Origin: a bacterium
GTDB taxonomy: Bacteria > Myxococcota_A > Polyangia > HGW-17 > JAJRWW01
Length of the DNA stretch: 64,000 nt
Direction of reading: 5' to 3'
NCBI GenBank assembly: GCA_043825095.1
Contig: JBDRSE010000156.1
Location: 125,309-189,308 of the forward strand
In this document: positions 3,051-59,961 of the stretch, piece after piece
How positions within the stretch are numbered: the stretch's first letter is position 1
How the letters are laid out: each line of letters opens with the position of its first letter
Translations under genes and position numbers: made by a program
Notes under the pieces: model-generated
What the model saw: the letters and a program-made list of their open reading frames with translations, nothing else
The model's database searches: none
Told to the model about the DNA's origin: nothing

Positions 3051-3789
3051 TCACGCCGGGGAGGAATCATCCAGCGCCTGTCGCTGCTTGTCCACGAGCG
3101 TCCGGATGCCTGCCAAGGCCAGGTCCAGCATGCGGTCCAGCTGTTCCCGGCTGAACGCCGCGCCCTCAGCCGTTCCCTGGAGCTCCACAAGCCGGCCCGA
3201 GCCGGTCATGGCGACGTTCAGATCCACGTCGGCGCGGCTGTCCTCTTCGTATCTGAGATCGAGCAGGGCTGCGTCCCCCAGGAGCCCGACGCTGACCGCG
3301 GCCACGGGCTCGCGCAGGGCCTCTGGTTTCACTTTCTGCTCCCGCACCAGCCCGGCGATCGCCAGGGCGAGGGCCACATATCCGCCGGTGATGGCCGCGG
3401 TGCGGGTGCCGCCGTCGGCCTGTAGTACGTCGCAGTCCACGGTGATCGCGTAGCCTTGGAGGGCTTGGAGATCCACGGCCTGCCGGAGGCAGCGCCCCAC
3501 GAGGCGGGAGATCTCCTTGGCGCGGCTGTTCTGCATCCGGCGGCCCCGGGTGTTCGTGGACCGGGGCAGCATGGCGTACTCGGCCGTGACCCAGCCCGTG
3601 CCGGCCTGCTCGGCGAAGGACGGGACGCTGGTCTCCACCGATGCGGTGCAGAGCACCCGGGTCCGGCCGAAGCTGATCTCAGCGGATCCCTCGGGGTGCA
3701 TCAGCACGCCGGTGGTCAGGGTGATCGGCCGCAGCTGATCCGGTTCGCGGTCGGTCCGGTGATAGGCGGGTCGGGGAGCAGAGGTCATG
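3051..3789 (-). CDS. rph: Ribonuclease PH
   Basis: 245-aa C-terminal part of the 3051..4352 ORF matches RNase PH ([12 protein letters not shown]..., [10 protein letters not shown]); ATG at 3789 preceded by the rest of the ORF, which has no homology. Confidence 0.88.
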
Positions 3790-10975: not shown

Positions 10976-12601
10976 CTAGGGCTGGACCTTGATCATGCCG
11001 AACCGGAAGGGGGGCGCGAAGCTCGCCTTGGGGAGCTTGCCGAGGGTGTGGATCCTGGCCTCGCCTTTGAGCGTCGGCTTGACCAACAGCCCGCAGGGAA
11101 CCTCCACCTTGGGCGGGTCTACAGACACCTGGGGCTGGCACATCACGGCGAGGAGGAGCTGTCCGTCCCCGGTGACCTGGATCGAAGAAAACAGGGCGGC
11201 CGCCTGATGGAACGGCGCGCCGGCGCCGAGGTGGTCCGTCTGGAGGATCGTCCCGAACTTGCCCAGCCGGCGCAGCAGCTCGGCTCCTTGCTGCAGTCCG
11301 GTCGGCGTGTTGAGGGGGTGTTTTGCGAGCAGGTGCATGTCGGGATGCATCATGCTGATCAGGAAGGACATCTTGCTGGGCTCCCGACGGATGACCGAGG
11401 CCGAGGCGATCTGGGTCATGGCGTAGGAGGTGTCTACCACCAGCGGCGTGCGCTGGCCGGGGAGCGCCAGGGTCGCCAGCGGTTTCAGCGAAGGCAGCAC
11501 GGTTGTGTCGACGGCAGAGACGACGCCGTACTTGCGCAGCATCGGCGGATGCTTGCCCACCAGCTGGCTGCGGGGGGTGTCCCCGGTCGCGATCCAGAGG
11601 ACCTGCTTGTAGCTGGAGCGAGGCTCGTAGGAGAAATGCATGGAGCGCACGAGAGGCTCCTTGGCCTCGGGGAGCAGCGGGATGAAGCTGGTGTTTCGGA
11701 CCTGGTTTGGGTCCGACACGTCGAAGAGCACCAAGGCGTTCTTGCCCTCGGTAAGCACGGCAAGGGTCTTGCCGTCCGGAGAGAGCTTGATGTCCACCAC
11801 ACCCGCCTTCAGCACGCCCGGCGGGAACCGCGCCGGCACGTACCGGCGGGGATTTCGGGGGTCGTCCAGATCGAACATCAGGATTGCCTTCTCGTGCACC
11901 ACGGCGGCCATCTTGGCCTCCGTCGCCACATCCAGGCCGATCACCTTCCACATCCCCAGCTTGCGTTGGGTCACCTCTTTGGGTCCCCCTGCGGCGGCGA
12001 GGTCGATCACCAGGAGCCGGGGTGCAGTGCCACCGGTGGTCACATAGGCCACGGAGCCGTAGCGGTCGAGGGCTACGAACTGCGGGGCGGTGGCCAGGAG
12101 CGGTTTTCCCACAACCTTCACGTCCGTGGCTCCGACGTCCAGCACCTGGACGCCCGGGAGCCCGGGGATGATGGCGAGGCCGTAACGCCGGAGCTCCAGC
12201 GGAACAGAGGCCGACCCTCGATCGTGGCTGATGGTGATGTTCAGCTTGCCGGGGGTGGTTCCGGCCGGGGCCCGGACGACGATGCCGCCGTCCTCGGTCC
12301 GCGCGATGACGGCCATCGGCTTGGAGCCGAAGCTCACCTGGGGCTGCTTGCCCAGATCCTTGCCGCGGATGACCAGGAGCTCTCCCACCACCGCGATGCC
12401 GTCGCTCTTGTCGTGTTTGAGCGGCTTGTTCATGATCAGGGGCACCGAGCCCAGATCCTGTACTCTCTCGATTTTGGGATCGCCGCTGGGGGACTCAAGG
12501 TCCATCTTGGTGACGAGCTTCCAGAGGTCCGGCGGCTTGCAGCCCGCCAACACGGATACGGCGCACACTGGGATGAGCCATCGGCGTAGCGTGGATACCA
12601 T
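10976..12601 (-). CDS. Lipoprotein with YVTN-type beta-propeller repeats
   Basis: Signal peptide + lipobox LAGC; repeated SPDGKTLAV-like propeller blades; ATG at 12601 (internal to the ORF-track ORF starting 12673). Confidence 0.5.
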   Translation of the reverse strand: MVSTLRRWLIPVCAVSVLAGCKPPDLWKLVTKMDLESPSGDPKIERVQDLGSVPLIMNKPLKHDKSDGIAVVGELLVIRGKDLGKQPQVSFGSKPMAVIARTEDGGIVVRAPAGTTPGKLNITISHDRGSASVPLELRRYGLAIIPGLPGVQVLDVGATDVKVVGKPLLATAPQFVALDRYGSVAYVTTGGTAPRLLVIDLAAAGGPKEVTQRKLGMWKVIGLDVATEAKMAAVVHEKAILMFDLDDPRNPRRYVPARFPPGVLKAGVVDIKLSPDGKTLAVLTEGKNALVLFDVSDPNQVRNTSFIPLLPEAKEPLVRSMHFSYEPRSSYKQVLWIATGDTPRSQLVGKHPPMLRKYGVVSAVDTTVLPSLKPLATLALPGQRTPLVVDTSYAMTQIASASVIRREPSKMSFLISMMHPDMHLLAKHPLNTPTGLQQGAELLRRLGKFGTILQTDHLGAGAPFHQAAALFSSIQVTGDGQLLLAVMCQPQVSVDPPKVEVPCGLLVKPTLKGEARIHTLGKLPKASFAPPFRFGMIKVQP

Positions 12602-12678
12602 TTGAGTCTCTCCTTCGACCGAAGTATGGGACGGGATTATCGGTATCTCCGCAGCCTTAGTCAACCATCCCACGGACG

Positions 12679-12796
12679 GATGTGTTCACGGGGGGGCTAT
12701 TTGCAGCACCTCACGAGCGCAGCGACTCCCGTCCCCCCAAGGGGTAGCCCGCGCTGCGTTGGGGGGCGCAATGCCGTCTGCCACGTGAACGGTTCA
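12679..12796. repeat. MITE-like intergenic repeat, copy A (related to 34620-34862)
   Basis: Shares GATGTGTTCACGG..CTATTTGC(A/G)GCACC..CCAAGGGGTAGCCCGC..GCCGTCT..ACGTGAACGGTT blocks with copy B; terminal inverted GTTCACG/CGTGAAC. Confidence 0.45.
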
Positions 12797-12881
12797 CCCT
12801 GGGACAAGGGTGTCGGAGACCCTCTTGACACTCGTCGAATGTTCAGTATACTGATTAAATGTTTAGATCTCGGAGGATCTC

Positions 12882-13493
12882 ATGGAGCCCTTGACGAAAC
12901 GACAGCGGCAGGTGCTGAATTTCATTACCCGCTCCATCGAGGAGCGTGGGTATCCCCCGACCATGCGTGAGATCGGCGAGCACATGGGCATCCGGTCCAC
13001 GAACGGAGTGAACGACCACCTCAAGGCCCTGGAACGCAAGGGGCACATCGTGCGGGAGGACCTCAAGTCCAGGACGCTCCGGCCGGTTTCAGCGTCGCCC
13101 CTGCCCGCGTCCATCCCCCTCGTGGGTCGGGTCGCCGCCGGTCAGCCGATCCTCGCCGTGGAGAACCTTGAGGAAACCATCAAGGTCGATCGCTATCTCG
13201 TGGGCGCCGGCGAAGACCTCTTCGGGCTGCGCGTGCAGGGCGAATCCATGATCGAAGACGGCATCCTGGACGGAGACATTGTCTTCGTGCGCCAGCAGCC
13301 CACTGCGAACCGGGGGGAGATCGTCGTCGCGCTCGTGGACGACGAAGCCACGGTCAAGCGCTACTACCCGGAGAAGAACGGCGTTCGTCTTCAGCCGGCG
13401 AACGCCTCCATGAAGCCGTTTCACATCCGCCCTGAGGACGGCACCGAGTTCAGCCTCGTCGGGGTGGTGGTCGGGGTGTACCGTCGCGTCTGA
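12882..13493 (+). CDS. lexA: LexA repressor
   Basis: N-terminal wHTH ([12 protein letters not shown]...[10 protein letters not shown]), Ala-Gly cleavage site, S24 peptidase Ser/Lys motifs; RBS ggagga 12872-12877. Confidence 0.9.
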
Positions 13494-33333: not shown

Positions 33334-34575
33334 ATGATCATACCGGCGATGGAGCTATGCGGGGGTAGGGTGGTGGTTGCGCAGGCGGACGAAACGACGC
33401 TCGAACGCGCAGAGGATCCCGTAGAGCTTGCCAAGGTCTTGTATCGCTACGGCGAAATCGCCCTGATCGATCTGGACGCCGCACGGGGCGAGGGGGACAA
33501 CCTGGAGCTCATCCGCGAGATCTGTCGCGTCTGCGAGTGTCGCGTCGGCGGGGGGATTCGAGACGAGAAGCGGGGAGATGCGCTGCTTCGCGCCGGCGCC
33601 ACCCAGCTGATTGTGGGCACCGGCGCCGACGAGGAGCTCCTGGCGCGTTTTCCGCGGAAGAAGGTGCTCGTCGGGATCGACGTCAAGGACGGAAAGATGG
33701 TCCACGGGGGGTGGATCGAGGCCACGGACATAGATCCCGTGCAGCTCGCTGTGCGGCTCCAGGAGTACTGTGCGGGCTTCGTTTATACGCCCGTTGGACA
33801 TCGCGACCGATTGGAGCCGGCCGAGGTTCAACGCTTCGAGGAGCTCCAGACCGCCTTGCCCAGGCATCGGTTCATCTTCAACGGCGGATTCTCCTCGTTG
33901 GACGAGCTCCGCGAGCTGGACCGCATCGGCGTCGACACCCAGGTGAGCTACGGCTTGATCCCGGAGGGGGTGGATCTCGCCGAGGCCTTCGTGGCGGTGA
34001 TCGACTTCGAGAAGAGCAGCGGGCTCGTTCCGGTGATCGTGCAAGACCAGGCAGGGCAGGTACTGACCCTCGTCTACGCCAACGAGGACGCGGTGCACAA
34101 GAGCCTGCAGACCGGCAAGGCGACCTACTGGAGCCCCGGGCGCGGCGAGATGTACACGAAAGGCCAGACCTCGGGGAATACCCATGAGGTGATTACGGTG
34201 CGGCCGGACTGCGATCGGGACGCGTTGCTGTTCGTCGTCGAGCCCCACGGCGCGTCCTGCCACGTGGGCCGTTACGCTTGCTTTGACGATATCTCGTACA
34301 ACCTGCAGCGCATCGAGCAGATGATGCGCTCCCGTCAGGCGGCTGCGGACGCCCGCAAGAGCTACACGTCGCTCATGCTGGCGGATCGCCAGGCGGTGAA
34401 GGATCGGGTCCGCGACGAGGCCGAAGCCCTGGTCGCCGCGAAGAGTCGCGACGAGGTCCTTTGGGAAACGGCGGATCTCCTCTATTTCGTGTTGCTCCAT
34501 CTCGTAGGGGAAGGCATCACCTTGGACGAAGTCCTCAAAGAGCTGCGCGGGAGGGCCGGGCGTCGGAGGTCCTGA
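33334..34575 (+). CDS. hisIE: Fusion protein: HisA-like (beta/alpha)8 domain + phosphoribosyl-AMP cyclohydrolase (HisI) + phosphoribosyl-ATP pyrophosphatase (HisE)
   Basis: N-term IIPAMELCGGRVV...VGGGIR...NGGFSSLDEL (HisA/HisF fold); middle DCDRDALLFVVEPHGASCHVGRYACF (HisI); C-term ETADLLYFVLLHLVGEGITLDEVLKEL (HisE). Confidence 0.7.
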   Translation: MIIPAMELCGGRVVVAQADETTLERAEDPVELAKVLYRYGEIALIDLDAARGEGDNLELIREICRVCECRVGGGIRDEKRGDALLRAGATQLIVGTGADEELLARFPRKKVLVGIDVKDGKMVHGGWIEATDIDPVQLAVRLQEYCAGFVYTPVGHRDRLEPAEVQRFEELQTALPRHRFIFNGGFSSLDELRELDRIGVDTQVSYGLIPEGVDLAEAFVAVIDFEKSSGLVPVIVQDQAGQVLTLVYANEDAVHKSLQTGKATYWSPGRGEMYTKGQTSGNTHEVITVRPDCDRDALLFVVEPHGASCHVGRYACFDDISYNLQRIEQMMRSRQAAADARKSYTSLMLADRQAVKDRVRDEAEALVAAKSRDEVLWETADLLYFVLLHLVGEGITLDEVLKELRGRAGRRRS

Positions 34576-34619
34576 CTTATCCTGAGCACGAGGGGGTGGG
34601 GCGCTCGAAAAGTACAGCG

Positions 34620-34862
34620 TATGTGTTCACGGGGTGAGCTATTTGCGGCACCCAGAGCGTAGCGAGGGCCACCCCCGGAGGGGGCGGAGGGGGAGATCTG
34701 AGCCGCGAAGTGGCGGATCGATCTCCGGCAGGTGCCAGCCTTCGCACCGCGCCGAAACCAGCCCGACAGCGCCGCCGCTGCGGCGGAGCACACCCCTGTC
34801 GGCCCCTCAAGGGGTAGCCCGCTAGCGCGGGCGTGCTGTGCCGTCTAATACGTGAACGGTTG
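34620..34862. repeat. MITE-like intergenic repeat, copy B (longer; flanked by direct repeat AGTACAGC)
   Basis: Same conserved blocks as 12679-12796 plus ~130-bp internal insertion with palindrome ggagatc..gatctcc; AGTACAGC at 34611-34618 and 34864-34871. Confidence 0.45.
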
Positions 34863-34925
34863 CAGTACAGCTTTGTGCCCATTCCTGGTAGGTTGAACCT
34901 CAGAGGACAGGCCATAGGAGGCGCC

Positions 34926-36164
34926 GTGAAAATCGTCAAGGGTGGTCCGCTTCCCGAGCGCCGACGACGAGGGAGCGCCCAGGATCGCGAGGCCGTGCGA
35001 GCCGCGTGTGAGGAGGTTCGGCGGTTCGGGGATCGCGCGTTGCGTCGCAGAGTGAAAGCCCTCGCCGTGCCGGGTGCGGAGCTGCGGCGAGCTTTCAGCC
35101 GCTTGACGCCCCAGGCGCGGAGTGCGCTCGAGCTGGCTTGTCGCCACGTCGGCCTGCTGGCTCGGCGCGAGCTGGCGGCGCTCAAGGAGTTCAACGTCAA
35201 GCCCACGGCAGGGGTGAGCTTGTACCAGCGTCTGCTTCCGGTACGCTCGGTCGGGATCCTCGCGCCGTCACGACAGATTGTGGCCGTGCTCATGGGGGCC
35301 ATACCAGCCGCAGTGGCCGGAGTGGAGCGGCGCGTGCTCTGCGCTGCCAGCGCAGACGGCGAGCTGGATCCCCATGTCCTCGCTGCGGCCTACATGTGTG
35401 ATATTACGGAGGTCTACCGCGTCGGCGGGGTGCTCGCCGCGGCAGCCCTCGCCTACGGGACCAAGACCATCCTGGCAGTGGATCTGATCGTCGGCGCCGG
35501 GGACTCGGCGGTGGCGATCGCCAAACAGGAGCTGGCCTCGGTCTGCGGCGTCGATCTGGCCACCGGCCCCCATGAGCTGCTCGTGCTGGCCGATTCCACG
35601 GCCCCACCGGAGTTCGTGGCCGCAGATCTGCTGGCCCAGGCGGAGCTGGATCCCGAGGCGGTGTGCCTGCTCGTCACCACCTCTGCCGACGTGGCCCAGC
35701 GTACCCGCGACGAGCTACGGAGGCTTGGGGGCTCGTTGCCCAAGGGACATCCGGCCCGGGGACCACTCAGCCGGGCTCGGGCCGTGGTGGTGGAGAGTCT
35801 CGACGAGGCCGTCGGGCTGGTCAATGCACGGGCTCCCCAGCGGCTCGCCCTGTTGGTCAAGCGTCCCGACGACCTGGCAGGTCGACTTCGAAGCTACGGC
35901 TCGCTGCTGGTCGGTCCGCAGTCGCCCGCGGCCCTGGGTGAGCTGGTGACCGGGGCCAACGCGCTGCTGCCCGCGGCGGGTGCAGCCGGGCAGTGGGGCG
36001 CCTTTGGTGTCGGCTCTCTGCTCCGGCGGGTGACCGTGCAGCAGGTCGACCCGTCCGCGTACCACCGGCTGTCCAGGGCAGCCGCCACCCTGGCCGAGCT
36101 GCAGGGACGAACCCTCACGACCCACGCCTTGACGGCCCGGCTCACCTCGGTCGAAGACGACTGA
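34926..36164 (+). CDS. Histidinol dehydrogenase-like protein (divergent; signature His replaced)
   Basis: HisD-like blocks GAGDSAVAIAKQELASVCGVDLATGPHELLVLAD and VAADLLAQAELDPEA (consensus ..SQAEHDP..); GTG start with RBS aggagg at 34916-34921 preferred over GTG 34833 lying inside the repeat. Confidence 0.6.
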   Translation: MKIVKGGPLPERRRRGSAQDREAVRAACEEVRRFGDRALRRRVKALAVPGAELRRAFSRLTPQARSALELACRHVGLLARRELAALKEFNVKPTAGVSLYQRLLPVRSVGILAPSRQIVAVLMGAIPAAVAGVERRVLCAASADGELDPHVLAAAYMCDITEVYRVGGVLAAAALAYGTKTILAVDLIVGAGDSAVAIAKQELASVCGVDLATGPHELLVLADSTAPPEFVAADLLAQAELDPEAVCLLVTTSADVAQRTRDELRRLGGSLPKGHPARGPLSRARAVVVESLDEAVGLVNARAPQRLALLVKRPDDLAGRLRSYGSLLVGPQSPAALGELVTGANALLPAAGAAGQWGAFGVGSLLRRVTVQQVDPSAYHRLSRAAATLAELQGRTLTTHALTARLTSVEDD

Positions 36165-36367: not shown

Positions 36368-36440
36368 TGAGCCCAGAAGGAATCGAACCTTCAACCTCCG
36401 GATTAAGAGTCCGCTGCTCTGCCAATTGAGCTATGGGCCC
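36368..36440 (-). tRNA. tRNA-Lys (anticodon CTT)
   Basis: Reverse complement GGGCCCATAGCTCAATTGGCAGAGCAGCGGACTCTTAATCCG...GGTTCGATTCC; loop cTCTTaa. Confidence 0.85.
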
Positions 36441-36457
36441 AGAGCAAGTTTTTAGTG

Positions 36458-36531
36458 CGCGCCCGGGGTGACTCGAACACCCGACCTGCGGATTCGAAGT
36501 CCGACGCTCTATCCAACTGAGCTACGGGCGC
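36458..36531 (-). tRNA. tRNA-Arg (anticodon TCG)
   Basis: Reverse complement GCGCCCGTAGCTCAGTTGGATAGAGCGTCGGACTTCGAATCCG...GGTGTTCGAGTCACC; loop cTTCGaa. Confidence 0.85.
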
Positions 36532-45863: not shown

Positions 45864-45961
45864 CAGCCGCGTTAATGCCGGTGTGTTCGGCCAACTGGGC
45901 GGCACACCAGCTGGACAGTGATTCGCGTTCTGGAGACGAAATCCGGACGCGAGAGCTGGGG

Positions 45962-46031
45962 GAGCTTCATGTACGTCGGTCCCCAGGGCATCGTGCGCGG
46001 GACCGCGGCCACGCTGCTGGGCGCGGCGGCA
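45962..46031 (+). pseudogene. Orphan fragment of urocanate hydratase gene (duplicate of hutU 47648-47715)
   Basis: ~68 bp with ~85-90% identity to the internal hutU segment encoding SFMYIGPQGIVHGTTITLLGAG; no flanking hutU sequence. Confidence 0.45.
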
Positions 46032-46078: not shown

Positions 46079-46891
46079 ATGCATCGGAGGCAGGCAATGG
46101 GAAAGTGGAAGCCTGAGAAATGTCGCAGGAGGACGCCCAACCTCCAAAACCAGCGATCTCAATGGGCAACGCTTGCCCTGCTCGCTGTAGGTGCCTGCAT
46201 GCAGGCCGCTTGCGGTAGCGGAACGCGGCGCCGAGGCTCCGGAAACGTGCCCGCTCCGCCCCTCAGACCCTCCGCAGCCCACAGGTCCTCCGCGACGCCC
46301 AAGCCCTCCGCGACGCCCAGGCCCTCCACGACGCCCAGATCCTCGGCGGCCCACAGGCCCACTCCGACCTCCAAGCCACCTCGACCTCGGGCAGCCGACA
46401 AGGGTCTCCCTGGGTGGAATGGTTTCGGTGGGAAGCAACCATCGCGCCCTGCCGGGCGGAGCCGCGACACCGCTGTGCTCTCGGACGGCGAGCAACCCCT
46501 GGGCGCCCTGGTCGGCCACTCTGTCGGCCCCTACGGTGCAGGGAAGTACCGCAGTTCTGTTCCCAGGGTCTTCATGAGTCGTGCGAAAGTGATTGGCCCC
46601 CTGGACGCCAGCGCGATCCGCAAGGTCGCCCGGCACCACCTGGCCGAGGTCAGGCACTGCTACGTCAGCGTGGGCATTGCCGCGAACCGCAACCTGAAAG
46701 GAAGGGTCGAAGTCAGATTCACGATCAAGCCAACCGGATCGGTAGGCACATTGCGGATTGCTCGTTCCACGCTTCACCATGCCAGGACAGAGAGCTGTAT
46801 CAAGAGCGCCATGCGTCGCTGGCGCTTTCCCAAATCCGCGAGAGGCAGCACCACCGTCAATTACCCCTTCACCTTTGTGTCCAAGGGGTAG
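46079..46891 (+). CDS. Lipoprotein with Pro/Ser/Thr-rich repeat linker and C-terminal AgmX/PglI (TonB-C-like) domain
   Basis: Lipobox AVGAC; in-frame 21-bp tandem repeat (46286-46348) encoding PSATPKPSATPRPSTTPRSS; C-terminal block HHLAEVRHCY...GRVEVRFTIKPTGSV...CIKSAMRRWRFP. Confidence 0.5.
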   Translation: MHRRQAMGKWKPEKCRRRTPNLQNQRSQWATLALLAVGACMQAACGSGTRRRGSGNVPAPPLRPSAAHRSSATPKPSATPRPSTTPRSSAAHRPTPTSKPPRPRAADKGLPGWNGFGGKQPSRPAGRSRDTAVLSDGEQPLGALVGHSVGPYGAGKYRSSVPRVFMSRAKVIGPLDASAIRKVARHHLAEVRHCYVSVGIAANRNLKGRVEVRFTIKPTGSVGTLRIARSTLHHARTESCIKSAMRRWRFPKSARGSTTVNYPFTFVSKG

Positions 46892-46972
46892 TGAGCGCCA
46901 GGGCAATCCTGCGCCTTGCCGAAGGGGTTTGAACTACGGGGTCGAAGGAGCGAGCCGCGAGGAGAGCCGACC

Positions 46973-49036
46973 ATGAATGACAGGACCGACAGGACCGACG
47001 TGAAGGACGCCGAGTTCCAGCAGGCCGTTCGCGCGGGGATTCCGCAGGAGCTGCCGGAGCTGCGGCCCGTAGACGATACGGTGGACCATGCGCCGCCGCG
47101 GCCGCAGGTGCTCAAAGGGCCGGAGCGCAGGCGGGCGTTGGAGAACGCGCTGCGGTATTTTCCGGAGTCGATGCACCGGGAGCTGGCGCCGGAGTTTGCG
47201 CGGGAGCTGGCCAAGGACGGGCGGATCTACATGCGGCGGTTCCGGCCGCGCTACGAGATGTACGCGCGGCCCATCGACGAGTATCCGGCGCGATGTCGGC
47301 AGGCGGCGGCGGTGATGGTGATGATCCAGAACAACCTGGACCCACGGGTGGCGCAGCATCCGCACGAGCTGGTGACCTACGGCGGGAACGGTACGGTGTT
47401 CCAGAACTGGGCGCAGTACCTGCTTACGATGGAGTATTTGTCGGAGATGAGCGAAGAGCAGACCCTGGTGCTCTATTCGGGGCATCCGCTAGGGCTGTTC
47501 CCTTCGCACGCCGACGCGCCGCGGCTGGTGGTCACCAACGGGATGGTGGTGCCGAACTACAGCTCTGGGGACGACTACAACCGCATGGCGGCGCTGGGGG
47601 TGACGTCCTATGGGCAGATGACCGCGGGGAGCTTCATGTACATCGGTCCCCAGGGCATCGTGCACGGCACCACGATCACGCTGCTGGGTGCGGGGCGGGT
47701 GTTTTTGGGGCTGGAGAACGACCAGGACCTTCGGGGCAAGGTGTACGTGACGTCGGGGTTGGGGGGGATGAGCGGCGCCCAGGGCAAGGCGTCGGTGATC
47801 TGCGGGGCGGTGGGGGTGATCGCGGAGATCAACCCTCTGGCGGCCAAGAAGCGCCACGAGCAGGGGTGGGTGGACGAGGTGGAGTCGGACCTGGACAAGG
47901 TGCTCCGGCGCATGGACGCGGCCCGGAAGGCGAAGGAGCCCCTGGCCCTGGCGTACGTGGGCAACGTGGTGGACCTCTGGGAGCGGTTCGTGAAAGCGGA
48001 TGTGGAGGTGGAGCTGGGCTCGGATCAGACCTCGCTGCACATTCCGTATACGGGCGGGTACTACCCGGCGGGGCTGAGCTTGGAGCAGTCCCGGGAGCTG
48101 ATGGGTCGGGACCCGGAGGGGTTCAAAGAGCGGGTGCACGCGTCGCTGCGGCGGCAGCTGGACGCCATCAACACCCTGGCGGAGCGCGGGATGGCCTTCT
48201 GGGACTACGGCAACGCGTTCCTGCTCGAGGCGTCGCGCGCCGGGGCGGCGGTGGCCGGGGATCGGCCGTCCGGCTTCCGGTACGCGTCCTACGTGGAGAA
48301 CATCATGGGGCCGCTGTGCTTCGACTACGGCTTCGGGCCCTTCCGCTGGGTGTGTACCAGCGGTGAGCCGGCGGACCTGCGGGTCACGGATCAGCTGGCC
48401 GCCGAGGTGCTCGCCGAGCTGATGGAGACGGCGCCCTGCGAGATCCGCGGCCAGCTGGGAGACAACCTGCGCTGGATCCGGCGGGCGGAGGAGCACCGGC
48501 TGGTGGTGGGCTCCCAGGCGCGGATCCTCTACGCCAACGAGGAGGGCCGCGTGAGGATCGCCCGGGCCTTCAACCGGGCCATCCGGGACGGCCGGGTGCA
48601 GGGGCCGGTGGTGCTCGGCCGGGACCACCACGACGTGTCGGGCACGGATTCTCCTTATCGCGAGACGGCCAATATCTACGACGGGAGCCAGTTTTGCGCC
48701 GATATGTCCGTGCACAACGTGATCGGCGATGCGTTCCGGGGCGCGACCTGGGTGAGCCTGCACAACGGCGGCGGCGTGGGCTGGGGCGAAGTGATGAACG
48801 GCGGGTTCGGGCTCGTGCTCGACGGCAGCGACGACGCGGATCGACGGCTGGCGGCCATGCTCTTCTGGGACGTGAACAATGGCATCGCGCGCCGGGCCTG
48901 GGCCCAGAACCCCGGCGCCGAGCACGCGGCCCGGGCCGTGATGGAGCGCGAGCAACGGATTCGGGTCACCCTGCCGAGCCATGCCGATCAGGACCTGCTC
49001 CAAGAAGCGCTGCGGGCGGCATTCTCAGAGAGCTGA
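46973..49036 (+). CDS. hutU: Urocanate hydratase
   Basis: Full-length urocanase; RBS gaggagag; ATG 46973. Confidence 0.9.
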   Translation: MNDRTDRTDVKDAEFQQAVRAGIPQELPELRPVDDTVDHAPPRPQVLKGPERRRALENALRYFPESMHRELAPEFARELAKDGRIYMRRFRPRYEMYARPIDEYPARCRQAAAVMVMIQNNLDPRVAQHPHELVTYGGNGTVFQNWAQYLLTMEYLSEMSEEQTLVLYSGHPLGLFPSHADAPRLVVTNGMVVPNYSSGDDYNRMAALGVTSYGQMTAGSFMYIGPQGIVHGTTITLLGAGRVFLGLENDQDLRGKVYVTSGLGGMSGAQGKASVICGAVGVIAEINPLAAKKRHEQGWVDEVESDLDKVLRRMDAARKAKEPLALAYVGNVVDLWERFVKADVEVELGSDQTSLHIPYTGGYYPAGLSLEQSRELMGRDPEGFKERVHASLRRQLDAINTLAERGMAFWDYGNAFLLEASRAGAAVAGDRPSGFRYASYVENIMGPLCFDYGFGPFRWVCTSGEPADLRVTDQLAAEVLAELMETAPCEIRGQLGDNLRWIRRAEEHRLVVGSQARILYANEEGRVRIARAFNRAIRDGRVQGPVVLGRDHHDVSGTDSPYRETANIYDGSQFCADMSVHNVIGDAFRGATWVSLHNGGGVGWGEVMNGGFGLVLDGSDDADRRLAAMLFWDVNNGIARRAWAQNPGAEHAARAVMEREQRIRVTLPSHADQDLLQEALRAAFSES

Positions 49037-56515: not shown

Positions 56516-57751
56516 GTGATGAGCCAAGCCGAGAGCAAACCGATTCTGGTTGTTGGCGGCGGAGTGAGCGGCATCAGCACCGCGCTGGAGCTGAGCGAGT
56601 TCGGCCGGCCGGTGATTCTCGTCGAGAAGGAGCCCTTTCTCGGCGGGAAGGTGGCCGCCTTCAACAAGTACTTTCCCAAGCTCTGTCCGCCCACCTGCGG
56701 GCTGGAGATCAACTACAAGCGTCTCCGGAAAAACGCGAATGTCACCGTGCACACCATGGCGCAGGTGACGCAGGTCAAAGGCGAGGCGGGCAGCTACGAG
56801 GTCACGATCGAGGTGCAGCCGCGCTTCGTAAACGACCGCTGCACCGCCTGCGGCGACTGCGCCGAGGCGTGCGCGGCGGAGCGCGAGGACACCTTCAATC
56901 AGGGCCTCGGCAAGACCAAGGCGATCTACACCGCGGGGAACATGGCGTACCCGAACCGGTTCGTGCTGGACCGGGCCGCCTGCGCCGAGGGGGATCTGGC
57001 CAAGATCAAGGACGCGTGCAAGTTCGGCGCGGTGGACCTAGACCAGACTGCGCAGACCCTGACCGAGCAGGTGGGGGCCATCGTCTGGGCCACGGGGTGG
57101 AGCTCCTACGACGTGTCCAAGGTGGAGTACCTCGGCTTCGGCAGGCTCCCCGACGTGATCACGAACCTGATGATGGAGCGGCTGGCCGACAACAGCGGGC
57201 CCACGGGAGGGAAGCTGTTACGGCCGTCGGACGGCAAGGAGGTCGAGAGCGTGGCCTTCGTGCAGTGCGCCGGCTCCCGGGACGTCAACCACCTGGCCTA
57301 TTGCTCCGGTGTCTGCTGCCTGGCCTCGCTCAAGCAGATCAACTATGTGCGGCAGGCGGCTCCGAACGCGAAGATCTACATGTTCCACATCGACGTGCGG
57401 GCCGGCAAGTACGAGGAGTTCTACACTCGGGTGTGTGGCGAACAGAACGTGGAGATCATCAAGGGCAAGGTCGCGGGCATCTTCCCCGAGGGCGACAAGC
57501 TGCGGCTGCAGGTGGAGAACATCGAGTCCGGGGAGTCGCTCAAGGTCGACGTGGACCTGGCGGTGCTGGCCACCGGCATCGTGCCCAACACGGCCGAGCT
57601 GCCTTTTGAGGGCACCAGGGACGACTACGGCTTTCTGATGCTCGACCCGACGAGCGGGATGATCCCCACCGGGTGCGTGCGTCGGCCGGCCGACGTCTCC
57701 ACCGTGGTGCAGGACGCAACCGGAGCCGCCATGCGGGCTCTCAGCCTTTGA
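56516..57751 (+). CDS. qmoA: QmoA-like FAD flavoprotein (HdrA family)
   Basis: FAD-binding ILVVGGGVSGISTALEL; RBS aaggagt; possible ATG at 56519. Confidence 0.75.
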   Translation: MMSQAESKPILVVGGGVSGISTALELSEFGRPVILVEKEPFLGGKVAAFNKYFPKLCPPTCGLEINYKRLRKNANVTVHTMAQVTQVKGEAGSYEVTIEVQPRFVNDRCTACGDCAEACAAEREDTFNQGLGKTKAIYTAGNMAYPNRFVLDRAACAEGDLAKIKDACKFGAVDLDQTAQTLTEQVGAIVWATGWSSYDVSKVEYLGFGRLPDVITNLMMERLADNSGPTGGKLLRPSDGKEVESVAFVQCAGSRDVNHLAYCSGVCCLASLKQINYVRQAAPNAKIYMFHIDVRAGKYEEFYTRVCGEQNVEIIKGKVAGIFPEGDKLRLQVENIESGESLKVDVDLAVLATGIVPNTAELPFEGTRDDYGFLMLDPTSGMIPTGCVRRPADVSTVVQDATGAAMRALSL

Positions 57752-57765
57752 GTAGAGGTACCCCA

Positions 57766-59961
57766 ATGGACAAAAAGCTAGGAGTGTACATCTGCACCGG
57801 ATGCGGCATCGGCGACGCCCTCGACATCGAGGCGGTGGCCAAGATCGCGACCAGCGATGGCAAGGCCGCGCTCTGTAAAAACCATGAATACCTGTGCGGC
57901 GAGGAGGGCCGCGCGCTCATCCAGGGGGACTTAGACAGCGAGTCCCTGGACGTGGTCGCCGTGGCTGCGTGCTCCATGCGCGAGAAGCAGCGGGAGTTCC
58001 AGTTCGGCAACGCCTGGGTGGAGCGGATCAACTTCCGTGAGCACCTGGCCTGGTGTCACGAGCCCAACGACGAGGACACCCAGTGGCTGGCCGAGGACTA
58101 CCTGCGGATGCTCGGCGCCCGGGTGGCCGTGACGTCGAAACCGGAGCCGCACGTCGAGGAGATGACGGATCGGCTGCTCGTGGTCGGCGGCGGAGTCAGC
58201 GGCCTGAATGCGGCCCTTTTCGCGGCCGAGGCGGGCCGCGAGGTGGTGCTGGTGGAGAAGGAGGACGCCCTGGGCGGCTTCCTCAGGCGCGTGCACAAGA
58301 AGTTTCCGGTCTCGCCACCCTACGAGGAACTCGAGGACAACGACATCGCGGACACCGTGGCCGCCGTGGAGGGCCACGGCAAGATCACGGTCTACAAGTC
58401 TTCCACTCTGGGCAAAGTCAACGGAGCTCCGGGCCGCTTCGAGGTGACCATCGAGGGCGCCGGCGCCAGCGAAACGGTGGGCTCCATCGTCGTGGCGGCC
58501 GGGTTCCAGCCCTACGACGTGTCCAAGGTCGCCAACCTGGGCTACGGCACCGTCAAGGACGTCGTGACCTCGGTAGAGCTGGAGGACATGGCCCGGGAGG
58601 GCAAGCTCACCCGGCCCTCGGACGACGGCGACCTCGAGACCGTGGTGTTCATCCAGTGCGCCGGCTCCCGGGACGCGGATCACCTGCCCTACTGCTCCAC
58701 GACCTGCTGCGCCGTGTCGCTCAAGCAGACGCAGTACATCCGGGACGCCAACGACGAGGCCAAGACCTACGTCCTGTACAAGGACATCCGGACCCCGGGA
58801 CAGTGGGAGACTTTCTATCAGAGCGTGCAGAAGAAGGGCACGCTCTTCGTGAAGGCCGAGATCACGTCCGTGGAGGCCGGGGACGACGGCGGCGCGGTGG
58901 TCCTGGCCCGCGATCTGCTGCTGGGCGAGGACATCGAGATCGAGTGCGACCTGGTGGTCCTGGCCGTGGGCCAGCAGACCACGGTGCTGGATCAGAAGGT
59001 CCTGAACCTGGGATATCGGCAGGGCCCCGAGCTGCCGGCGCTGGGCGAGAAGGTCCAGCTCACCGAGGGCGAGGGCGAAGCTGCGCAGGAGGTGGCCCGG
59101 GTGGACCAGCCCACGGGCGGCTTCCCCAATTCCCACTTCATCTGCTTCCCCTACGAGAGTCGGCGCACGGGCATCTACGCCGCCGGCTCGGTGCGTCAGC
59201 CCATGGACACCGCCTCCGCGGCGGACGACGCGGCGGGCGCCGCCTTCCAGGCCCTCAAGTCAGTGAAGCTGGGCGGTGAGGGCAAAGCCGTGCACCCGCG
59301 GGTGGGCGACGTCTCGTGGCCCGACTTCGCGCTGCAGCGGTGCACCCAGTGCAAGCGCTGCACCGAGGAGTGCCCCTTCGGCGCGCTGGACGAGGACGAG
59401 AAGGGCACGCCGAAGCCGAACCCGACCCGCTGTCGGCGGTGCGGCGTCTGCATGGGCGCGTGCCCGGAGCGGATCGTCAACTTTGCCGACTACTCCGTGC
59501 AGTCCATCAACTCGATGATCAAGGGCATCAACGTGCCCGAGGAGTGGGAGGAGAAGCCCTGCGTGCTGTGCCTGATGTGCGAGAACGACGCCTACCCGGC
59601 GCTGGACATCGTGGGCACCCAGCGGCTGAAGTACTCACCCTTCGTGCGCTTCGTCCAGATGCGCTGCCTCGGCGGGCTGAACCTCCAGTGGATCGCCGAC
59701 TCCATGGCCAAGGGCTTCGACGGCGTGCTGCTGCTGGGGTGCAAGGCCGGGGACGACTACCAGTGCCACTTCATCCAGGGGAGCGAGCTGGCCCAGATCC
59801 GGCTCAGCAAGGTGGCCGAGACCCTGGATCGGCTGATGCTGGAGTCGGACCGCGTGGAGTACCACGAGGTGGAGATTGACAACTACGGGGCCATGCCGAA
59901 GATCATCGATGACTTCTTGGCGAAGCTCGAGGCGCTCGGTCCCAACCCGTTCAAGGATTAG
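57766..59961 (+). CDS. qmoB: QmoB-like flavoprotein (HdrA family with 2x[4Fe-4S] and C-terminal MvhD-like domain)
   Basis: LLVVGGGVSGLNAA FAD site; CTQCKRCTEECPFG and CRRCGVCMGACPER clusters; C-terminal MRCLGGLNLQWIADSMAKGFDGVLLLGC MvhD-like. Confidence 0.75.
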   Translation: MDKKLGVYICTGCGIGDALDIEAVAKIATSDGKAALCKNHEYLCGEEGRALIQGDLDSESLDVVAVAACSMREKQREFQFGNAWVERINFREHLAWCHEPNDEDTQWLAEDYLRMLGARVAVTSKPEPHVEEMTDRLLVVGGGVSGLNAALFAAEAGREVVLVEKEDALGGFLRRVHKKFPVSPPYEELEDNDIADTVAAVEGHGKITVYKSSTLGKVNGAPGRFEVTIEGAGASETVGSIVVAAGFQPYDVSKVANLGYGTVKDVVTSVELEDMAREGKLTRPSDDGDLETVVFIQCAGSRDADHLPYCSTTCCAVSLKQTQYIRDANDEAKTYVLYKDIRTPGQWETFYQSVQKKGTLFVKAEITSVEAGDDGGAVVLARDLLLGEDIEIECDLVVLAVGQQTTVLDQKVLNLGYRQGPELPALGEKVQLTEGEGEAAQEVARVDQPTGGFPNSHFICFPYESRRTGIYAAGSVRQPMDTASAADDAAGAAFQALKSVKLGGEGKAVHPRVGDVSWPDFALQRCTQCKRCTEECPFGALDEDEKGTPKPNPTRCRRCGVCMGACPERIVNFADYSVQSINSMIKGINVPEEWEEKPCVLCLMCENDAYPALDIVGTQRLKYSPFVRFVQMRCLGGLNLQWIADSMAKGFDGVLLLGCKAGDDYQCHFIQGSELAQIRLSKVAETLDRLMLESDRVEYHEVEIDNYGAMPKIIDDFLAKLEALGPNPFKD

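Follow-up and report, generated by a model that had tools for sequence, protein, structure and literature searches.

Bacterial MITEs, among them the Correia elements of Neisseria, are small non-coding elements found between genes and by promoters, and their inverted termini are typically of roughly 15-40 bp. ERIC elements come in shorter and longer versions, distinguished by an internal insert, and REP/REPIN families normally number tens to hundreds of members built on a palindromic unit of at least 20 nt (about 20-35 nt) that is highly conserved and arranged in inverted pairs. The insertion sequences of the IS256, ISL3, IS66, IS6 and IS1595 families generate duplications of 8-9 bp. Nothing pertinent to MITEs in myxobacteria was found in the literature. 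The DNA analyzed here, a stretch of 64 kb referred to as the window, includes two copies of a short sequence, one preceding lexA (copy A, the short form, 119 nt) and the other preceding hisD (copy B, the long form, 245 nt). We consider it moderately probable that both copies are a small, non-coding and non-autonomous mobile element of the MITE type that was moved in trans. As an insertion the element is ordinary, MITE-like and restricted to its lineage; with both sites empty in relatives, it has the look of a small transposon relic and not that of regulatory DNA under conservation. Its membership among the MITEs is demonstrated only in part.

Copies A (12678-12796) and B (34619-34863), both read on the plus strand, were delimited by alignment with each other and by their absence from the orthologous spacers of five and three relatives, respectively. 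A preliminary description of this DNA had located them correctly at 12679-12796 and 34620-34862, but the best boundaries differ slightly from those extents. It had also proposed a family of two copies with ordered common blocks, and every block was found in the same order in both copies: (G/T)ATGTGTTCACGGGG, GCTATTTGC(A/G)GCACC, GAGCG(C/T)AGCGA, CCCC(C/T)CAAGGGGTAGCCCGC, TGCCGTCT and ACGTGAACGGTT. The ends of the element read G-N-ATGTGTTCACGG and ACGTGAACGGTT. Once the large indel is left out, the copies are identical at 90 of 114 aligned columns (79%), with the best conservation at the ends (identity at 30 of the 33 leftmost bases and at 12 of the 14 rightmost) and a variable interior. When copy B was compared by blastn with the whole 64-kb window, two collinear matches to copy A were obtained (E=4.7e-8 and 5.7e-7), and the similarity was also recovered by nhmmer. 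Chance similarity was excluded by the alignment and these searches. The similarity extends to CG-N-ATGTG at the left end and to GGTT at the right end, beyond which the flanks of A and B are unrelated and are orthologous to different loci in the relatives. Since the flanks are not shared, a segmental duplication, which could have explained the pair, was excluded. Neither blastn nor nhmmer detected a third copy within the window; a candidate degenerate copy at 46876-46896 lies at the 3′ end of an ORF (46079-46891) and was rejected as a chance match.

The two forms differ by an internal segment of copy B (34667-34797, plus strand), which appears as an alignment gap with respect to copy A. The preliminary description had noticed an extra palindromic insert here, and the segment of about 131 nt is indeed strongly self-complementary, with 75% G+C. 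Inverted arms of 41 nt at 34666-34706 and 34780-34820, matching at 71%, form a long imperfect hairpin in this region. No other copy of the segment was found in the 64-kb window, and it represents either a loss from copy A or a gain in copy B. Repeats of other kinds are also present in the window. Two clusters of tRNA genes lie on the minus strand, three genes at 2018-2289 and two at 36368-36531, and two of the tRNAs, those at 2110-2183 and 36458-36531, show 81% identity over 72 nt. A direct repeat of 68 nt, 90% identical, occupies 45959-46026 and 47626-47693, and further direct repeats of 87-149 nt, 71-72% identical, are found at 57070-57357 and 58476-58748. The members of both pairs are about 1.4-1.7 kb apart and are unrelated to the element; the pairs are probably inside ORFs and may represent tandem paralogous genes. 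At 400-1500, repeats spaced by 96 nt (TGC...GACAACGGCGTGGACGACGA) occur inside a long ORF (260-1903), and from their sequence they look like cysteine-containing modules of a secreted or surface protein.

Both copies have the inverted core GTTCACG/CGTGAAC, as was initially reported. In copy A the 5′ arm GTTCACGGGG (12684-12693, plus strand), 10 nt in length and 90% complementary to the 3′ arm CCACGTGAAC (12781-12790, plus strand) with which it pairs, includes the perfect core. In copy B the cores at 34625-34631 (GTTCACG) and 34851-34857 (CGTGAAC), both listed on the plus strand, are 100% complementary. The terminal inverted repeat is thus perfect over 7 bp, with 9 of 13 end positions complementary and nothing convincing further in. 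Copy B is flanked by the direct repeat AGTACAGC, found at 34611-34618 and again at 34864-34871. This putative target-site duplication, which the preliminary description had also noted, is exact over 8 bp and directly abuts the element on both sides; an exact repeat as long as this occurred in about 0.14% of shuffled flanks (p about 0.0014). The situation at copy A is different. There, the longest exact flanking repeat is 4 bp (p=0.63), and the best candidate for a duplication is the pair formed by the left flank CCCACGGAC (12669-12677) and the right flank CCCTGGGAC (12797-12805), which agree at 7 of 9 positions, a marginal match that by itself is without significance. Target-site duplications at each copy had been put forward as a check on mobility; copy B has one and copy A has, at best, this imperfect pair. 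Both flanks of A resemble CCACTGGC, the empty site in relatives, and as sequences they are compatible with an old, decayed duplication.

The surroundings of both copies were compared with eight syntenic loci from distant relatives, five at site A and three at site B. The nearest relatives have LexA proteins 81-84% identical and HisD proteins 64-65% identical to those of the window, and those with names are MAGs assigned to Polyangia, Kofleriaceae or 'Deltaproteobacteria'. Because the next-best HisD and LexA matches are this distant, the source of the DNA is, judging from its sequence, a sparsely sampled Myxococcota-like lineage. The orthologous sites were empty at all of these loci, and the flanking promoter blocks align across the gap. 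With respect to the eight loci, the element is present as discrete insertions.

Copy B is preceded by a hisF/hisIE fusion gene (33334-34575) and followed by hisD (34926-36164); the two genes are on the plus strand. The product of the fusion gene, 413 aa, includes a His_biosynth domain (hisF/hisA-like) followed by PRA-CH and PRA-PH domains, and it is preceded by a gene for an FHA-GGDEF protein, an arrangement that is kept in relatives. The same gene order, FHA-GGDEF, hisF/hisIE fusion, hisD, was observed in the three loci with an empty site B (L026, L030 and L031), where the hisFIE-hisD spacers are 146, 120 and 65 bp versus 350 in the window. Without copy B and one AGTACAGC, the window sequence becomes GAAAAGTACAGCTTTGTGCCCATT-CCTGGTAG. 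L026 reads GAAAAATTCGGGTTTTCTGTGGAT-CCTGGTAG and L030 is equivalent, and both align with the reconstructed site without gaps. This ungapped reconstruction is the outcome that would be expected of an insertion that duplicated 8 bp of its target. The hisD-proximal block is conserved in relatives that do not have the element.

Copy A occupies a spacer of 280 bp between lexA (12882-13493, plus strand) and a minus-strand gene of about 542 codons, which has its start codon at 12599-12601 and a product (~542 aa) with no Pfam match. A promoter scan of the spacer identified two strong divergent promoters versus 0.1 expected in shuffles: TTGACA-16-TATACT (12825-12852, plus strand, 11/12), which serves lexA and is conserved in relatives without the element, and TTGACT-17-GATAAT (12636-12664, minus strand, 10/12), which serves the ~542-aa gene. 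Copy A lies exactly between the two divergent -35 hexamers and is therefore upstream of both transcription units. The preliminary description had placed both copies immediately upstream of genes. They are intergenic, but copy A is not inside the lexA promoter; it precedes the promoters of both neighbors. The distance from the element to the start codon is 86 nt for copy A (lexA) and 63 nt for copy B (hisD), and both copies are oriented like the downstream gene.

Site A was empty in five distinct relatives (L032, L033, L034, L037 and L038), with spacers of 119-152 bp versus 280 in the window; L039 and L040 were obtained together with L038, L040 having an identical spacer, and five loci were counted as distinct. 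In four of the five, the empty site reads GAGTCAACCACTG(G/C)CTTGACAC, also given as GAGTCAACCACTG(G/C)CTTGACACTC. These four have the arrangement AGTCAA-CCACTGSC-TTGACA, in which the divergent -35 hexamers are 8 bp apart, and in L032 the distance is 15 bp. At about 3925-3945 of L032, which is orthologous to window positions 12665-12825, CACTGGC is tandemly duplicated (AACCACTGGCCACTGGCTTGAC) at the point where copy A resides in the window. The extra CACTGGC could be the excision footprint of a similar element or the product of simple slippage. Compared to the relatives, the window includes at site A the element plus about 35 further bases, an excess that was counted against a MITE. Copy A is separated from the lexA -35 hexamer by roughly 28 bases (12797-12824) that occur in no relative examined and include a small hairpin, CACCCT-GGGACA-AGGGTG. 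Positions 12803-12819 are 71% complementary to 12646-12662 across the element.

All relatives have nearly the same lexA -35 and -10 hexamers and operator-like block (TTGACACTCGTCGAATGTTCAGTATACTGATTAAATGTTTAGAT). The region upstream of lexA (12825-12875) also shows a perfect palindrome, TCAGTATACTGA, over the -10 hexamer, and direct repeats, ATGTTCAG and ATGTTTAG. From its sequence, the near-invariant block probably serves this lineage as LexA operator. It includes GTTCAG, a motif shared with the LexA box of Myxococcus xanthus, a consensus that the block does not fully fit. The preliminary description had suggested that the element may donate promoter or operator sequences. This was not borne out at lexA, where the element lies upstream of the promoter and the operator-like block; because both are conserved in relatives without the element, the element donates neither of them.

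Searches for other members of the family covered a wide range of collections. An exact pattern scan for the 5′ blocks in GTDB species representatives (185,579 genomes) detected no homologue and gave a single match, due to chance. That match (L002, positions 3412-3443, in the Verrucomicrobiota MAG contig CAZFAP010000157.1) is inside a coding gene, has a different block spacing and was rejected. It encodes the IVHGGLRYLQH motif of an FAD-dependent dehydrogenase, presumably GlpD-like, and demonstrates that coding DNA can contain the blocks TGTTCACGG...CTATTTGCAGCACC by chance. Matches to the 3′ blocks in JGI metagenomes (20) and IMG/VR (3) were also discarded as chance, all of them being unaccompanied by the other blocks. 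Comparison with PLSDB plasmids and phage records by blastn in 'distant' mode gave no match, and nhmmer, run with a profile of A and B over syntenic regions of relatives that total about 130 kb, gave nothing below E=1. When a six-frame pseudo-protein of both copies was compared to a database of 5.8 billion proteins, no relative was found, nor were there mis-called ORFs over other copies. The plasmid and phage records, and likewise the pattern scans, yielded no autonomous element with a similar sequence. Neither copy has coding capacity, and at 119 and 245 nt they agree in size (below about 600 bp) and non-coding nature with MITEs.

The Logan assemblies of two sequencing runs (SRR26275509 and SRR10569040) match the window at 100% identity, and each is interrupted within the element: one contig (L001) starts at 12696 and another (L036) ends at 34651. 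These contigs are 4-11 kb in length and, by a rough estimate of our own, the probability that both ends fall by chance inside targets of 119 and 245 nt is about 1e-3. The breaks could have been produced by near-identical further copies that branch the k=31 graph or, equally, by a drop in coverage at the G-run or the GC-rich hairpin. Breaks inside the element are expected if near-identical copies branch the graph, and for this reason they were counted in favor of a MITE, of which further copies may exist elsewhere in the genome.

The element could be a structured RNA, either a gene or a cis-acting module, with two paralogous copies that act on the lexA and hisD messages or in trans, an explanation that we judge unlikely. 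Conservation is blockwise, and the variable region and the large indel fall inside a predicted hairpin, as they would in an RNA with a closing stem GUUCACG/CGUGAAC, the proposed single-stranded blocks CUAUUUGC, UGCCGUCU and CAAGGGGUAGCCCGC, and an inner hairpin of variable length. On both strands, copy B folds much better than shuffled sequences (z=-3.96 on the plus strand, and -3.16), but copy A does not (z=-1.35 and -0.40). RNAalifold retains four features in the two copies, namely the closing stem, a small AUUUGC hairpin, an inner stem and a CCCC-N4-GGGG hairpin, with a single double change, which affects the outermost pair. As judged by eye, one compensatory C-G to U-A exchange with a bulge may be present in the inner stem, which is CGCAGCG/CGCUGCG in copy A and (G)CGUAGCG/CGCUA(G)CG in copy B. 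That both copies are oriented like the downstream gene was also counted in favor of an RNA. With two sequences, constraint on an RNA is inseparable from the palindromic nature of a transposon. Several observations are hard to accommodate by an RNA: no sigma-70-type promoter or intrinsic terminator was detected in or beside either copy by a scan limited to these signal types, copy A resides in DNA that neither flanking promoter transcribes, and the element is missing from the orthologous sites of all relatives and from every collection searched. A search of the window against Rfam 15 gave no match at gathering thresholds and, at E<=10, both regions produced only noise of 13-17 bits. Of the attributes of an independent sRNA gene, neither a sigma-70-type promoter and intrinsic terminator of its own nor conservation in relatives was found, and an RNA leaves the exact duplication around copy B without explanation. 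The preliminary suggestion of a structured RNA accordingly found neither a known Rfam family nor usable covariation between the two sequences. Also very unlikely is that the element is retained as a donor of regulatory DNA, a promoter or an operator, to the downstream genes, a role compatible with a mobile origin. A sigma-54-like GG-N10-GC is found in GGGG..GCTATTTGC, within the conserved 5′ block, followed by TTGC(A/G); ATGTGTTCAC has some likeness to ATGTTCAG of lexA, and GTTCA is common to the element and the operator-like block; and both copies face the downstream gene at the short distances given above. However, the conservation of the lexA promoter, its operator-like block and the hisD-proximal block where the element is missing indicates that the element is not needed for them, the sigma-54 resemblance does not include the TGGCAC part while GG-N10-GC is poor in information, and two insertions provide no statistics on preference for site or orientation. 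Other functional assignments were dropped. The R″/R′ core motifs of an integron attC site do not fit; a retron msr/msd or a TnpB/IscB guide RNA was discarded with lexA and hisD immediately downstream and no reverse-transcriptase or nuclease gene there; and a LexA box within the element was discarded when its GTTCAC was compared to the GTTCAG of the conserved lexA block.

Among mobile or repetitive sequences, the element could be a palindromic repeat of the REP/REPIN or ERIC type, whose spread would depend on an enzyme of the RAYT type (IS200/IS605-like), on recombination or on repair and not on a transposase of the cut-and-paste kind, with AGTACAGC being coincidental or the result of microhomology. 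The imperfect intergenic hairpin, the short and long forms differing by an internal insert, the very short inverted-repeat core, the absence of a clean duplication at copy A and the small palindromes at both target sites (GTCAA-N-TTGAC and AAAG-TACAG-CTTT) would all suit such a repeat. Nonetheless, we regard this origin as improbable. The 8-bp repeat that abuts copy B is exact and infrequent among shuffled flanks, the empty site B reconstruction stays in register with the relatives, and two copies in 64 kb with a core of 7 bp, or 7-10 nt at most, are far from what characterizes REP/REPIN families. A more unusual possibility is that of a mobile structured module, an RNA or single-stranded DNA hairpin with conserved loop blocks, that inserts near -35 regions and, in this uncultured lineage, rewires the expression of genes for stress and biosynthesis (lexA and hisD), possibly by means of an undescribed mobilizing enzyme; we consider it highly improbable. 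The MITE-like insertion proposed by the preliminary description fares better, although not in every respect. The empty orthologous sites, the duplication at copy B and the unshared flanks agree with it; the short terminal inverted repeat (7 bp perfect), the lack of an exact duplication at copy A, the finding of two copies in 64 kb and the absence of an autonomous partner from the records searched speak against it.

A pathway can be outlined for a MITE-type element. The element would have short imperfect terminal inverted repeats, G-N-A-TGT-GTTCACG ... CGTGAAC-GGTT-NN, and a body that folds into an extended, imperfect hairpin. Its movement would depend on a transposase whose gene is located elsewhere in the genome and which would recognize the conserved ends; staggered cuts at the target would lead to the duplication of 8 bp, or possibly 8-9 bp. 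Both insertions would have taken place after the lineage split from the sampled relatives. The copies would survive because their positions, between back-to-back -35 hexamers in the case of A and in the hisFIE-hisD spacer in the case of B, are tolerated and do not disrupt the promoters nearby, and at site B the duplicated AGTACAGC would rebuild the sequence upstream of hisD. Both insertions would be neutral. If this pathway is correct, the element is a further example of a lineage-specific MITE-like family, in this case from a GC-rich, Myxococcota-related organism that is poorly sampled, which would not surprise specialists. Its value would be in annotation, as it accounts for two unusually long spacers and for the assembly breaks within them, and it may serve as a strain marker. 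The picture of the control of lexA and the histidine operon would be unchanged, because the native promoter and operator-like blocks are kept whether the element is present or not. The finding would acquire greater weight only if additional copies proved to favor -35-proximal sites systematically or if a new mechanism of mobilization were involved.

The element matches no described family among those tested. With the ERIC/IRU and REP/REPIN sequences it shares imperfect intergenic palindromes and size variants that originate from internal inserts, and its transcripts, like theirs, would be strongly structured; those families have no regular target duplication, many copies and a well conserved palindrome, whereas the element has an exact duplication of 8 bp at copy B and was seen in two copies. 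It differs from MITEs in that its termini are perfect over only 7 bp, the copy number seen here is very low, and there is neither a known parent insertion sequence nor similarity to anything in the collections searched. The Correia elements and those derived from IS630 duplicate TA, unlike the 8 bp found here. In length, the duplication (8 bp at copy B and possibly 9 at copy A) is like those of IS256, ISL3, IS66, IS6 and IS1595, although the ends of the element appear unlike the termini of these families. The closest likeness is to bacterial MITEs, such as the Correia elements and other IS-derived sequences: a non-coding element in the range of 100-250 bp, located in intergenic DNA by promoters, with inverted termini, a hairpin-prone body, short and long variants, empty orthologous sites and, at one of its copies, a target duplication.
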